Shown here in pieces: positions 60 through 18,834 of a stretch of DNA of 43,814 nt (position 1 is the stretch's first letter; each line of letters starts with the position of its first letter). The notes below the pieces were generated by a model, which searched no databases, had not been told where the DNA came from, and was given only the letters and a program-made list of their open reading frames with translations. The translations under genes were made by a program, and so were the position numbers. The stretch lies in contig CADALJ010000006.1 in assembly GCA_902788735.1 (NCBI GenBank), forward strand, positions 1-43,814. Direction: 5' to 3'. Origin of the DNA: an uncultured Erysipelotrichaceae bacterium (GTDB lineage: Bacteria > Bacillota_I > Bacilli_A > RF39 > UBA660).

Positions 60-88
60 TTGACAAGTATAAAAAAAAAGATTATATT
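60..88 (+). promoter_or_regulatory. sigma-A promoter of glyQS leader
   Basis: TTGACA (60-65), 17 bp spacer, TATATT (83-88). Confidence 0.75.
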
Positions 89-94
89 TAATTC

Positions 95-221
95 ATAAGT
101 GTGATGACGGGTGTGGAAAGCCAAGAGCAGTATAGATTAAAGACGATTCTTCTAGAATAAGTAAGGTGGAACCGCGGAGTTATAACTTCGTCCTTACATA
201 ATTCTAGAAGTTTTTAATTTT
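95..221 (+). ncRNA. Gly T-box riboswitch leader (short, atypical)
   Basis: AAGG-TGGAACC-GCG T-box motif at 163-176; GTAAGG/CCTTAC antiterminator helix; variable base A matches tRNA-Gly discriminator U73; lies upstream of GlyRS. Confidence 0.85.
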
Positions 222-232
222 AGGAGGAAATT

Positions 233-14553: not shown

Positions 14554-14560
14554 TTATACA

Positions 14561-14772
14561 TCGATGGAGATATAGAAGTAGTAGTAAATGATTTACTTAT
14601 AGAGAGACTATGTGAGGTGGAAATAGTCAGTAATAGTTTATGAATTCGTCTATGGAGTTCTTATTAATAGTAAGCGTGTGACTTTCGTTACAAGTCTAGA
14701 GTGTATAGTAATAACTATAAAGTAAGGTGGTACCGCGAGTAAATCGTCCTTACATTTATAGTTATTTTTTTT
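14561..14772 (+). ncRNA. Phe T-box riboswitch
   Basis: AGTA, AGAGA and GGTGGAA Stem I motifs; GAA-TTC specifier (Phe UUC at 14645-14647); AAGG-TGGTACC-GCG T-box at 14724-14737; upstream of pheST. Confidence 0.92.
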
Positions 14773-14783
14773 GGGGGAATATT

Positions 14784-15407
14784 ATGAAAAGATTTATATT
14801 TGCTTTAGATGATACATTATTAACTAAAAATTATAATTTAGAGAAAGAGTATTTTGAAAGTATTTATGGAAATGATAGTACTAAATTACTTAATGGTCTT
14901 AGTGTATATTTAAATAGTTATGAAAATTCGTATTCAAAATATGATAGAGATAAGTTGTGTAGGTATTTAAATTATGTAAGTGGCTTAAAGTTTACTTTAG
15001 AAATACTAGATGGTTGGAATGAAGTAATAGGTAATCAGCATTGTAAAACAGAAGAAGGAACTATTGAATTATTAGAATATTTAAAAGGTAAAGGATATAG
15101 TCTATCTATTTTAACTAATTGGTTTAGAGAACCTCAAATTAAAAAAATTCAAAATGCTGGTTTAATAGAATATTTTGATGATATATATACAGGAGATGAG
15201 GTACTAAAGCCAAATAAAGAAGCATATATATGTGCGAAAGATCGATTTAGTTTTAATGATTGTGTTGTAATAGGTGATGATCTTAGAAAAGATTATATGG
15301 TGCCTAGAGAATTAAACATGGGTGCAATTCTTTATGATAAGACTGATTTACAAAGAAGTGGCATAGTTAAAGTAAAAAGAATGAATGAAATAATGGAAAA
15401 ATTTTAG
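14784..15407 (+). CDS. HAD-superfamily hydrolase (motif I first Asp replaced by Ala)
   Basis: FIFALDDTL, LTNW, KP, IGDD...D motifs; GGGGGA RBS before ATG 14784. Confidence 0.85.
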   Translation: MKRFIFALDDTLLTKNYNLEKEYFESIYGNDSTKLLNGLSVYLNSYENSYSKYDRDKLCRYLNYVSGLKFTLEILDGWNEVIGNQHCKTEEGTIELLEYLKGKGYSLSILTNWFREPQIKKIQNAGLIEYFDDIYTGDEVLKPNKEAYICAKDRFSFNDCVVIGDDLRKDYMVPRELNMGAILYDKTDLQRSGIVKVKRMNEIMEKF

Positions 15408-15415
15408 GAGGATAT

Positions 15416-16468
15416 ATGGAAAATAAAAAGGTATTAGAAATAAAAGAATTAATGAAAAATGATTTAGTTGATTCTGTTGATATGAATAAATTAAATGATT
15501 TAAAAGTAAAGTATTTAGGTAAAAAAGGTTTGATTACTCTTCTTAATAGTGAGATTAAAAATATTCCTAATGAAGAAAAAAAAGAATTTGGAATGATGGT
15601 AAATGAACTTAGAAATGATTTTAATAATTACTATGAAAATAAAAAACAAGAATTAGAAAGCGCTTTATTAAATGAAAAATTAAGTAAAGAAGCTATTGAT
15701 ATTACTTTACCTAGTAAAAAGATTAAGAGAGGTTCATTAAACCCTATGACTAGAATAACTGAAGAGTTTGAGGATTTATTTGTGTCTATGGGTTATACAG
15801 TATTTGAAGGACCTGAACTTGAAAGTGATGAGAATTGTTTCCAAAAGTTAAATTTACCTAAGGGACATCCAGCAAGAGATGCACAAGATACATTCTATTT
15901 AAAAGATGAAGTAGAAAATTATTTATTAAGAAGTCAAACTTCTACTGCACAAGTTAGAGCAATGGAAGAAAATATTGATAAGGGCCCTATTAGAATAGTT
16001 TGTCCAGGTAAAGTTTATAGAAGAGATGAAGATGCAACTCATTCACATCAATTTATGCAAATAGAGGGATTAGTTATTGATAAAAATATTTCAATGGCTG
16101 ACTTAAAAGGAACTCTTGAAGTAATGATGAAACATGTTTTAGGAGAAAAGACTGAAGTTAGATTTAGACCAAGTTATTTTCCATTTACTGAACCTAGTGT
16201 AGAAGTAGATGTAACATGCTTTAAATGTGGTGGAAAGGGATGTAATCTTTGTAAAGATACAGGTTGGATTGAAGTATTAGGTGCTGGTATGGTACATCCT
16301 GATGTACTTACTATGAGTGGATATGATCCTAATGTATACCAAGGATTTGCATTCGGTACAGGATTAGATAGAATGGCTATGTTTAAGTATGGTATTCCAG
16401 ATATTAGAACTATCTATGGAAATGATTTAAGATTTATTAATCAATTTGATAGAAAGGATGATGAATAA
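15416..16468 (+). CDS. pheS: phenylalanine--tRNA ligase alpha subunit
   Basis: HPARDAQDTF, LLRSQTS, FRPSYFPFTEPS, GFAFG.GLDR. Confidence 0.98.
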   Translation: MENKKVLEIKELMKNDLVDSVDMNKLNDLKVKYLGKKGLITLLNSEIKNIPNEEKKEFGMMVNELRNDFNNYYENKKQELESALLNEKLSKEAIDITLPSKKIKRGSLNPMTRITEEFEDLFVSMGYTVFEGPELESDENCFQKLNLPKGHPARDAQDTFYLKDEVENYLLRSQTSTAQVRAMEENIDKGPIRIVCPGKVYRRDEDATHSHQFMQIEGLVIDKNISMADLKGTLEVMMKHVLGEKTEVRFRPSYFPFTEPSVEVDVTCFKCGGKGCNLCKDTGWIEVLGAGMVHPDVLTMSGYDPNVYQGFAFGTGLDRMAMFKYGIPDIRTIYGNDLRFINQFDRKDDE

Positions 16469-18834
16469 TGTTATTAAGTAAGAAATTTGTATCTGATTAT
16501 ATTGATTTAGATGAAAATTTAAGTATTACTGATATTGCTAATGCAATGACTTCAGTAGGTAATGAATATGATTATGCAGGTAAACTTATTAATTGTACTA
16601 ATTTAATTACTGGTGAAGTTGTAGAATGTGTTGATCATCCTGATAGTGATCATTTACATGTATGTAAAGTTAACATAGGAAGTGAAGTATTAAATATAGT
16701 ATGTGGTGCTCCTAATGTTAGATGTGGATTAAAAGTAGTTGTTGCTTTGCCAGGTGCTGTACTTCCTTTAGGAGAAATCAAAAAGGGTGTAATTCGTGGA
16801 GTAGAATCAAATGGTATGCTTTGTTCTCTTGCAGAATTAGGATTAGATAATAAATTCTTAAAACCTGAAGATAGGGAAGGTATTCATGAATTACCAAGCG
16901 ATACTGAAATTGGTATCGATGGTATTAAAGCCTTAGGATTAGATGATGAAGTAATTGATTTTGAATTAACAAGTAATAGAGGAGATTTATTAAGTGTTAT
17001 AGGTATGGCTTATGAATTAGGGGCAATCTACTCTAAGAAAGTAAAAGATATAGATTTAAAATATAATTCTAATGATGATGATATTAATAATTCGTTTAAA
17101 ATTGATATTCAAACTAAAGATTGTAGTTTATTCTTAGCTAAAAAAGCTATTAATGTAACGATAAAAGAAAGTCCTTTATTTATTAAGAATAGACTTATTG
17201 CATCAGGTATTAGACCTATTAATAATGTAGTAGATATATCAAATTATGTAATGTTAGAAACTGGTCAACCACTTCATTATTATGATGCTGATAGATTAGG
17301 TGATACATTAATAGTTAGAAATGCTACAGATGGAGAAAAACTTGTAACACTTGATTCAGAGGAAAGAGTTTTATCTAGTGATGATATAGTTATTGCAGAT
17401 AAAGAAAAAGCTATTGGACTTGCTGGTGTTATGGGTGGACTTTCTACAGAAGTAGAGGAAAACACTAAAAATATTATTATTGAATCAGCAATCTTTGATT
17501 CTATTAAAATTAGAAAAACTAGTAAGAAGATATTAAGAAGTGAAGCTTCTAATAGATTTGAAAAAGGTTTAGATCCATTAAGAACATATATGGCTATTGA
17601 GAGAAGTTGTGCATTACTTGAAAAGTATGCAGATGCTACAATAGTTGGTGGTATTTGTGAATATAAAGATTTAGTCATTAGTGATACTTCTATTGATATT
17701 ACATTAGCTAAGATTAAGAGTGTACTTGGAATAGAAATATCTAAAGAAGAGGTAATTGATATATTTAATAGATTAGGATTTATTGTTACTGATAATAAAG
17801 AATCATTAAATGTAGTAGTTCCTTCAAGAAGAAGAGATATTAAAATAGTAGAAGATTTAATAGAAGAAATTGGTAGAATTTATGGAATGGATAAAATAGA
17901 AGGAAAACTACCAGTACTTGATACTGTTAAAGGTAAATATGATAAGACTAAGAGAGCTATTAAACATAAACTTGCTGATCTTGGTTTAAATGAAACTATT
18001 AGTTATACATTAATACCTAAAGATGAAGTACATAAATTTACTAAAGATGAATTTACTGAAGTAATGTTAAATGATCCAATGAGTGAAGATAAGAATACTT
18101 TAAGATATAGTTTAATTTATTCATTATTAGAAATATATAAATATAATAAAGATAGAAATAATTCTAATGTATCTATATTTGAAATAGGTAAAGGTTTCTA
18201 TAAAAAAGATAACGAATACTTTGAAGAAAATAAATTATGTGTATTAATGAGTGGTGAATATGAATTAGATATTCATAATGAAAAAGTTGATTTCTATCAC
18301 TTAAAAGGTATTATGGAAGAATTATTATATTTCTTAGGATATGATAATAGATATAGTTTACTAATAAATGATTATATTCCAAATGAATTACATCCAGGTG
18401 TTAGTGCTGCAATTAACGTAAGTGGAGTTAATGTAGGAGTAATTGGTAAACTTCATCCTAACGTAATTAAAGATAATGTATATGTAATGGAAATTAATTT
18501 AGATAAATTGTTAAGCATAAAAACTGGATCTATGAAATATAAAGATTATTCTAAATTCCCAAGTATTTATAAAGATGCAGCGTTTATATTAGATAATAAA
18601 GTTACTAATAAAGAAGTACTTGATACTATTAAGAGAGCTGGAGGAAGATTGTTAAGTTCAGTATCATTATTTGATGTATATGAAAATATTTCTGAAGGTA
18701 AAAAATCTATGGCTTATAAGATGGTATTTACTGATCCTACTAAAACACTTAGTGATGAAGAAGTAATGGAATTATTTAATAAAATAATTGACAAAGTAGT
18801 GTCAAGTTTTAATGCAGAATTAAGAGATAAGTAA
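16468..18834 (+). CDS. pheT: phenylalanine--tRNA ligase beta subunit
   Basis: IVCGAPN, RGVESNGMLCS, NRGDLLS, GQPLH, RFEKG, FDVY. Confidence 0.98.
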   Translation: MLLSKKFVSDYIDLDENLSITDIANAMTSVGNEYDYAGKLINCTNLITGEVVECVDHPDSDHLHVCKVNIGSEVLNIVCGAPNVRCGLKVVVALPGAVLPLGEIKKGVIRGVESNGMLCSLAELGLDNKFLKPEDREGIHELPSDTEIGIDGIKALGLDDEVIDFELTSNRGDLLSVIGMAYELGAIYSKKVKDIDLKYNSNDDDINNSFKIDIQTKDCSLFLAKKAINVTIKESPLFIKNRLIASGIRPINNVVDISNYVMLETGQPLHYYDADRLGDTLIVRNATDGEKLVTLDSEERVLSSDDIVIADKEKAIGLAGVMGGLSTEVEENTKNIIIESAIFDSIKIRKTSKKILRSEASNRFEKGLDPLRTYMAIERSCALLEKYADATIVGGICEYKDLVISDTSIDITLAKIKSVLGIEISKEEVIDIFNRLGFIVTDNKESLNVVVPSRRRDIKIVEDLIEEIGRIYGMDKIEGKLPVLDTVKGKYDKTKRAIKHKLADLGLNETISYTLIPKDEVHKFTKDEFTEVMLNDPMSEDKNTLRYSLIYSLLEIYKYNKDRNNSNVSIFEIGKGFYKKDNEYFEENKLCVLMSGEYELDIHNEKVDFYHLKGIMEELLYFLGYDNRYSLLINDYIPNELHPGVSAAINVSGVNVGVIGKLHPNVIKDNVYVMEINLDKLLSIKTGSMKYKDYSKFPSIYKDAAFILDNKVTNKEVLDTIKRAGGRLLSSVSLFDVYENISEGKKSMAYKMVFTDPTKTLSDEEVMELFNKIIDKVVSSFNAELRDK

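Follow-up and report, generated by a model that had tools for sequence, protein, structure and literature searches.

How does a T-box leader end transcription when the strand in front of its U-tract finds no partner in the antiterminator? The canonical rule is that the 3' strands of helices A1 and A2 become the 5' strand of the terminator (PMC7583486, PMC10907184, PMC11404447, PMC7778990 and PMC2494555, each cited here for the sections available to us). In the reviews among them, this refolding is what happens unless uncharged tRNA stabilises helix A1. The question is raised by the leader of glyS, close to the start of the 43,814-nt stretch of DNA analysed here (the window), which belongs to a metagenome-assembled genome of 1.02 Mb with 26% G+C. 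Judged by its sensing parts this element is a T-box, although two features of the family, a long Stem I and a canonical terminator, are missing. We propose that it is probably a transcriptional T-box whose OFF state keeps A1 and A2 and would sequester Stem III and its purine latch instead, a reading that is developed below from the sequence and predicted fold of the leader, its orthologs and other T-boxes of the same family.

Anatomy of the glyS leader

The features of the leader are collected in Table 1, together with those of a second leader of the window. Direct reading of the sequence verified all the coordinates that a first-pass annotation had given for Stem III, A1, the T-box bulge, the 149-158/201-210 complementarity and the TTTTT run. 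From the position of the promoter, transcription should start near 95. Of 45 orthologous leaders, 35 have a -35/-10 pair immediately 5' of Stem I, with a median of 13 nt between the end of the -10 element and the G of the K-turn, and because the promoter adjoins the 5' side of Stem I there is no room for a longer one. Stem I of the Gly leader is confined to 100-129, and the long form with a distal platform for the tRNA elbow is absent; between 130 and 145, there is no Stem II, S-turn or IIA/B pseudoknot.

This reading of Stem I is supported by covariation: RNAalifold analysis of 46 leaders recorded two-sided changes at the pairs of the distal helix in 15, 14 and 9 sequences, and in 8 at basal pair 3/35. 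The specifier in the Stem I loop of relatives is GGA or GGC; the genome encodes both tRNA-Gly(UCC) and tRNA-Gly(GCC), and the GGA of the window matches tRNA-Gly(UCC). Both tRNA-Gly genes end in TCCA, which matches the bulge at the discriminator position, and the RRRxG-Stem III-AA discriminator motif is present at 141-160. The leader is about 118 nt long, counted from the beginning of Stem I to the U-tract. Its score against the Rfam model RF00230 is 31.2 bits (E 2.6e-5), under the gathering threshold of 93, and this low score results from the deletion of 87 Stem I positions of the model in the alignment; with 31 bits against a threshold of 93, the standard annotation misses this class of leader.

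Table 1. Positions of the glyS and Phe leader features in the window
Feature	Position (strand)	Details
Promoter	60-88 (+)	-35 TTGACA 60-65, spacer 17 nt, -10 TATATT 83-88; 11/12 consensus matches
Stem I (ultrashort)	100-129 (+)	basal helix 100-102/127-129; distal helix 110-111/121-122 (2-4 bp); terminal loop 112-120
Stem I internal loop	103-107, 124-126 (+)	K-turn-like; GATGA 103-107 facing AGA 124-126
Specifier	115-117 (+)	GGA, then A118 (purine); inside the Stem I terminal loop, an unusual position
Purine string	141-145 (+)	AGACG; 5' flank of Stem III; fits the RRRxG motif as defined in the available sections of PMC7583486
Stem III	146-158 (+)	hairpin ATTCT-TCT-AGAAT; Rfam alignment puts Stem III at the same site
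AA	159-160 (+)	3' flank of Stem III, latch purines; columns invariant in the leader alignment
Predicted terminator, base helix 5' strand	149-158 (+)	CTTCTAGAAT; loop and 3' strand of Stem III
Antiterminator	161-197 (+)	A1 161-166/192-197 (GTAAGG/CCTTAC); bulge 167-173; A2 174-191 with G174-U191 wobble
T-box bulge	167-173 (+)	TGGAACC, 7 nt; UGGA at the 5' edge complements UCCA of tRNA-Gly; Rfam alignment puts the T-box sequence at the same site
Predicted terminator, 3' strand	201-210 (+)	ATTCTAGAAG; exact reverse complement of 149-158
U-tract region	211-221 (+)	TTTTT 211-215, then AATTTT
Shine-Dalgarno (SD) region	222-229 (+)	AGGAGGAA, containing AGGAGG 222-227
glyS	222-1603, SD included (+)	alpha2-type glycyl-tRNA synthetase, 456 aa; ATG at 233
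Phe leader	14558-14772 (+)	Rfam T-box 14558-14754, 109.6 bits (above the threshold of 93)
Phe leader Stem III	14704-14719 (+)	
Phe leader A1	14722-14727/14748-14753 (+)	
Phe leader bulge	14728-14734 (+)	TGGTACC
Phe leader base helix	14710-14721/14755-14766 (+)	12 bp; AATAACTATAAA with TTTATAGTTATT, then T run to 14772

Fold of the leader and choice of pairing partner

For positions 95-221, RNAfold predicts a single long hairpin (MFE -31.2 kcal/mol, z -2.79) made up of the base helix 150-158/201-209, a small internal loop, and A1 and A2, both kept, with the 7-nt bulge open. The full helix 149-158/201-210 surrounds an intact antiterminator and is mutually exclusive with Stem III. In this arrangement, the 10-16 nt after A1 pair with the Stem III region and extend A1 downwards into a long hairpin that ends at the U-tract. 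The strand after A1 clearly has one preferred partner: its predicted duplex with the Stem III region reaches -11.8 kcal/mol, compared with -6.2 kcal/mol for the 3' strand of A1/A2, where the best duplex is the 6 bp of AACTTC (185-190) with GAAGTT (207-212). No canonical partner for the A1/A2 3' strand was found in the Gly leader.

The Gly leader presents a hairpin that directly abuts a U-tract, as intrinsic (Rho-independent) terminators do, but one that is neither compact nor GC-rich, with about 40 nt enclosed by an AU-rich base helix. A simple scan for terminators at positions 1-400 of the window returned 0 sites, and because the program accepts only loops of 3-8 nt and requires 3 G-C pairs, this result is no argument against a long interrupted hairpin. 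Assembled contigs of two RNA sequencing runs contain short pieces of the coding region only, and none extends over the leader. In the full-length fold, the A-rich stretch AGATTAAAGAC (134-144), including the purine string, pairs with the U-tract region GTTTTTAATTT (210-220), G-U pairs included. A-tract/U-tract symmetry is usual in strong terminators.

Pairing in orthologous glyS leaders

Orthologs of glyS occur in 61 of 61 family genomes. A leader was found within 260 nt 5' of glyS at 16 of 30 family loci and within 500 nt in 37 of 80 public relatives, a motif match inside a coding sequence (L147) being excluded, and some of the glyS loci counted as leaderless in these figures carry the leader further upstream (for example, G004). 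The sample analysed here comprises 53 orthologous glyS leaders (52 unique) of metagenome-assembled genomes of related gut Bacilli, titled uncultured Bacilli, Bacillales, Mollicutes, Erysipelotrichaceae, Candidatus Faecimonas gallistercoris and Clostridium sp. CAG:417. Among these orthologs, the U-tract lies 14-328 nt from the ATG, and the hairpin and U-tract are constant. The predicted terminator is 139-328 nt 5' of the glyS start in L073, L076 and L122 (also in L096 and L099), compared with 14-60 nt elsewhere.

All 53 leaders have a helix of 8-17 bp between the strand after A1 and the Stem III region (in 2 of them after the U-tract had been corrected), followed in each by 4 to 9 consecutive T. 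The mean duplex energy of this strand is -11.4 kcal/mol with the Stem III region, -3.8 kcal/mol with the A1/A2 3' strand and -3.2 kcal/mol with the A1 5' strand plus bulge, and the Stem III duplex is the strongest of the three in 52 of 52 unique leaders. When partners were permuted among the 52 leaders, the cognate pairings were better in 10000 of 10000 permutations; when the downstream strand was shuffled, the real duplex energy was matched in 0 of 200 shuffles for 35 of the 52 leaders and in at most 2 of 200 for 45, so that chance does not account for the pairing. A1 is fully retained in the MFE structures of 50 of the 53. The first-pass annotation had held that the canonical mutually exclusive terminator is absent and that the antiterminator persists within the terminator hairpin, and both points are supported by these comparisons at the level of sequence: the strand in front of the U-tract has no conserved partner other than the Stem III region, and A1 and A2 are nested within the predicted hairpin.

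These figures bear directly on a reading in which the terminator is real but control is still exerted through A1, the OFF state remodelling A1/A2 and the Stem III pairing merely adding stability. A1 shearing is the decisive step of known T-boxes (PMC7583486, sections available), the 6-bp alternative of the Gly leader (-6.2 kcal/mol) would offer a route to it, and one ortholog, L119, folds with a slipped A1. We nonetheless consider this reading unlikely, since pairing of the A1/A2 3' strand is not conserved, is on average weak and falls below the Stem III duplex in every unique leader, and since A1 survives whole in nearly all predicted structures.

The 52 leaders were aligned with MAFFT, and the structure was taken from the window's own sequence. 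The whole structure is 92% paired in this alignment, compared with 40-51% when the partners are slid. The base helix is 83-86% paired, with two-sided changes at 6 of 11 pairs, and 0 of 500 shuffles reached any of these measures, although shuffle statistics overstate the significance because the leaders are related and do not count as independent samples. At column pair 22/85, 23 leaders have U-A and 20 have U-G; at pair 29/81, 34 have G-C and 10 have G-U. The frequency of such changes from U-A to U-G and from G-C to G-U argues for pairing in RNA. Covariation between the Stem III region and the downstream strand in homologous leaders, which the first-pass annotation had named as a check on its proposal, is indeed observed, in that compensatory and G-U changes maintain the pairing. 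Within the antiterminator, A1 is 98.7% and A2 98.8% paired, with compensatory changes in both, and 51 of the 52 leaders carry the basal G-U of A2. Stem III is paired in 95.8% of the cells of the 52-leader alignment and its changes are one-sided only, so that formation of this hairpin is supported by conservation and homology, not by covariation.

On average, the terminator fold lies about 10 kcal/mol under the fold without the downstream strand, and in 44 of 45 leaders it leaves no predicted Stem III pair intact, a count to be read with the noise of automated Stem III finding in mind (fewer than 3 Stem III pairs in 7 of 52 folds without the downstream strand). The pairing register varies: in most leaders, it covers the loop and 3' strand of Stem III, often together with the AA, and in about a third it covers the purine flank and the 5' strand and loop of Stem III. 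In 27 of 52 Gly leaders, the downstream strand pairs with the AA latch. In either register, Stem III cannot, as predicted, coexist with the base helix. This variability fits the notion that Stem III must be broken, yet it complicates any single pathway of strand exchange. At the level of predicted structure, the alignment shows a helix that is conserved, covaries, is incompatible with Stem III, surrounds A1 and A2 and ends at a run of T; we infer that the same helix is an intrinsic terminator, which would be formed through invasion of Stem III.

The distribution of the leader is relevant to whether it still functions. T-boxes were assigned to classes by the region that pairs with the strand before the U-tract, and a covariance model derived from the short Gly leaders was used to search 141 genomes of the class. 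The model matched 12 of 12 sampled family genomes besides the window's own, with 49-122 bits; 10 of these matches were assigned by script to the Stem III design, one was unparsed and one ambiguous. All matches outside the family scored at most 61 bits, and the 17 examined comprised 11 canonical T-boxes (by script), 1 in which the A1 5' strand and bulge are paired, and 5 that were unparsed or mixed; the Gly leaders among them have a full-length Stem I. A degenerate remnant of a T-box, acting as a constitutive partial attenuator with no response to tRNA, would account for the Rfam score (31.2 bits against a gathering score of 93) and for the lack of a tRNA-elbow platform and Stem II. It would not account for the conservation, with covariation, of the specifier loop, K-turn, purine flanks, bulge, A2 G-U and helices in 46-52 leaders from many genera, for the fit of the bulge to the discriminator base of tRNA-Gly and of the specifier to tRNA-Gly(UCC), or for the presence of the leader in every sampled family genome, and we regard it as decidedly improbable.

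A further alternative, raised in the first-pass annotation, is that the leader acts on translation, with the A1/A2 3' strand TTCGTCCT (187-194) sequestering the SD region at 222-229. These two strands are complementary at 7 of 8 positions in the Gly leader, and a Stem I this short is otherwise characteristic of T-boxes that act on translation (PMC7583486, as far as its available sections go). However, the spacing between U-tract and start codon is not conserved among orthologs, whereas the helix and T run are, and the strand 187-194 is paired inside the hairpin in both predicted states; by our own reasoning, moreover, a strand that contains TCCT should by default be partly complementary to any AGGAGG. 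SD sequestration is therefore not supported, and we rate it very unlikely. A transcriptional switch at Stem III remains our preferred reading of the Gly leader.

The Phe leader and other T-boxes of the family

The Phe leader of the window was said in the first-pass annotation to have the same layout with an unrelated helix sequence, and its coordinates and fold bear this out. Its predicted fold reaches -19.8 kcal/mol (z -3.37), an energy matched by 0 of 200 shuffled sequences, and the UGGU of the bulge fits the ACCA end of tRNA-Phe. The first gene 3' of this T-box is an ORF for a HAD-family hydrolase (14784-15407, HAD_2), followed by ORFs at 15416-16468 and 16468-18834. These 350-aa and 788-aa ORFs are taken to be putative pheS and pheT on the basis of their sizes and the Phe specifier.

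The 40 non-Gly T-boxes of the family (9 from the window's own genome, 29 from 25 family genomes and 2 from two more; 4 of them placed by eye) comprise 21 canonical T-boxes, 11 of the Stem III design and 8 in which the A1 5' strand and bulge are paired, with none unclear. Among 64 T-boxes from other families of the class, 53 were canonical by script and 8 by eye (2 of these 8 calls being less sure), 2 had the Stem III design (L167 and L205), none had the bulge design and 1 was unclear. The class of one locus, L229, depends on which T run is chosen and is either the Stem III design or canonical.

The 11 non-Gly leaders of the Stem III design, including that for Phe, have helix sequences that are unrelated, each matching its own partner. 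The mean energy is -7.4 kcal/mol for cognate pairings compared with -3.35 kcal/mol for non-cognate ones; the cognate partner is the best in 7 of 11 leaders, and 0 of 10000 permutations equalled the observed value. In all 11, only 0-1 unpaired nt separate the helix from A1 on the 5' side, which means that the conserved AA is consumed. The idea that the two TTCTAGAA palindromes of the Gly leader (150-157 and 202-209) are DNA operators, with RNA complementarity as a by-product, draws on a palindrome that is present twice and well conserved in many orthologs, but it is barely credible, given that the changes at pairs 22/85 and 29/81 preserve RNA pairing and break DNA identity, that some orthologs use a different register and that the helices in other leaders of the Stem III design are unrelated and not palindromic.

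Discussion

The proposed switch through Stem III can be described as follows. When uncharged tRNA is lacking, or when the tRNA is charged, the downstream strand would invade the weak, AU-rich Stem III, and the hairpin would be completed while the polymerase is on the U-tract, thereby stopping transcription. Uncharged tRNA, when present, would hold the AA, the strands of Stem III and the G of RRRxG, which are the nucleotides that the terminator strand needs. Held in this way, these nucleotides would be closed to invasion, and the polymerase would read through into glyS with A1 untouched. If the switch works via invasion of Stem III, the choice between ON and OFF would fall to Stem III and the purine latch instead of helix A1.

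The locking of Stem III by uncharged tRNA is suggested by analogy with known T-boxes. According to the available sections of PMC7583486, an antiterminator alone, without Stem III, shows no appreciable tRNA binding, and aminoacylation may block engagement of the purine string. The same sections state that tRNA stacking on helix A1 decides between ON and OFF in known T-boxes and that transcriptional T-boxes need a long Stem I platform. Because the Gly leader is predicted to keep A1 in both states and has neither the platform nor Stem II, these known mechanisms are not directly transferable to it.

Compared with canonical T-boxes of the glyQS/tyrS type (RF00230), the Gly leader has the specifier followed by a purine, UGGN in a 7-nt bulge, A1/A2 with the G-U at the base of A2, a Stem III flanked by RRRxG and AA, and a hairpin with U-tract before an aminoacyl-tRNA synthetase gene. 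It is without Stem II, as in Gly T-boxes. It differs in that the A1/A2 3' strands stay paired and the 5' strand of the predicted terminator is the Stem III region, and in that Stem I has no distal tRNA-elbow platform, with a correspondingly low score against the Rfam model. The translational ileS T-boxes of Actinobacteria (PMC7583486 and PMC10907184, sections available) likewise have a short Stem I, a specifier near or in the terminal loop and no elbow platform; they keep Stem II and the IIA/B pseudoknot, and a sequestrator controls the access of ribosomes. In contrast, the Gly leader has no Stem II and no conserved SD-sequestering helix, and it ends in a hairpin and U-tract.

Lineage-specific remodelling of the terminator and antiterminator is also known from another glycyl T-box, that of staphylococcal glyS with its stem Sa (PMC9177973 and PMC4574755, in the sections available). 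Stem Sa is an insertion in the canonical pair of exclusive helices, whereas in the Gly leader the competing element itself is changed. A parallel in logic may be offered by strand-invasion ON riboswitches such as the pbuE adenine riboswitch (PMC10907184, available sections), in which a downstream strand invades a ligand-stabilised helix to give the terminator. The sensor and ligand are different, however, and the helix that would be invaded in the Gly leader is a peripheral hairpin of a sensor for the tRNA 3' end, the core helices of which survive.

The wiring of a T-box terminator to Stem III is apparently new, as none has been described in the literature searched. Full-text searches, within the reviews and papers that they covered, turned up no account of a terminator based on Stem III, though an earlier mention may exist in older papers or in supplements. 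In TBDB, as far as the available sections of its paper (PMC7778990) go, terminators were chosen by RNALfold and terminator classes are not discussed.

A broader proposition, for which we put the chances at about even, is that in this family of gut Bacilli with reduced genomes, the decision point of the T-box has shifted away from A1. In one design, Stem III and the latch would be invaded and A1/A2 kept; in a second, Stem III would have been lost, and a strand pairing with the A1 5' strand and bulge would imitate the 3' end of tRNA. The first of these designs would support a transcriptional Gly T-box of about 118 nt that dispenses with both the elbow platform and Stem II.

If the proposal for the Gly leader is true, this would be the smallest natural transcriptional T-box, and the aminoacylation signal could be read through Stem III and the purine latch alone; the leader would then be a direct natural test of the contribution of Stem III to the sensing of aminoacylation. 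A sensor of this size may suffice for co-transcriptional control without an elbow platform. The natural compensatory variants among the orthologs would serve for testing the Stem III latch, and the system could be of use in studies of the T-box mechanism and in the design of small tRNA-responsive switches.

Additional observations

In the second non-canonical design, A2 is retained and the 5' strand of A1, together with the tRNA-binding bulge, is the partner of the strand before the U-tract. In the window's own genome (G000), this design occurs at five loci: L002 (C27:6238-6430), L006 (C1:3792-3959), L007 (C55:3234-3402), L009 (C3:10328-10510) and L010 (C5:21084-21255). It also occurs at L051, L064 and L175 in relatives and at L248 in another family. 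The strand before the U-tract in L002 contains ACCA, resembling a tRNA 3' end. Most leaders of this design are without Stem III, and the Rfam alignments of L002, L007 and L009 delete 17-19 Stem III positions; Stem III has been stated to be present in all T-boxes identified so far (PMC11404447, 2024, in the sections available).

A different arrangement was observed at L067 (1501-3241, G015:C14), a canonical T-box with a specifier read as AAC (Asn). A gene for tRNA-Asn(GUU) lies at 1780-1855, about 15 nt past the terminator of this T-box, and is followed by a long open frame that is taken, by its sequence, to be a putative aspartyl-tRNA synthetase. If so, the L067 T-box would control the gene of its own tRNA ligand in addition to a synthetase.

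The first genes after six T-boxes of the window's own genome (L002, L003, L004, L007, L008 and L010) do not encode synthetases. Their products are an HD-domain protein, a member of the cytidine/dCMP deaminase family, a 127-aa protein without a Pfam match, a dNMP-kinase-like protein, an Na/Ca exchanger and a DUF1653 protein.
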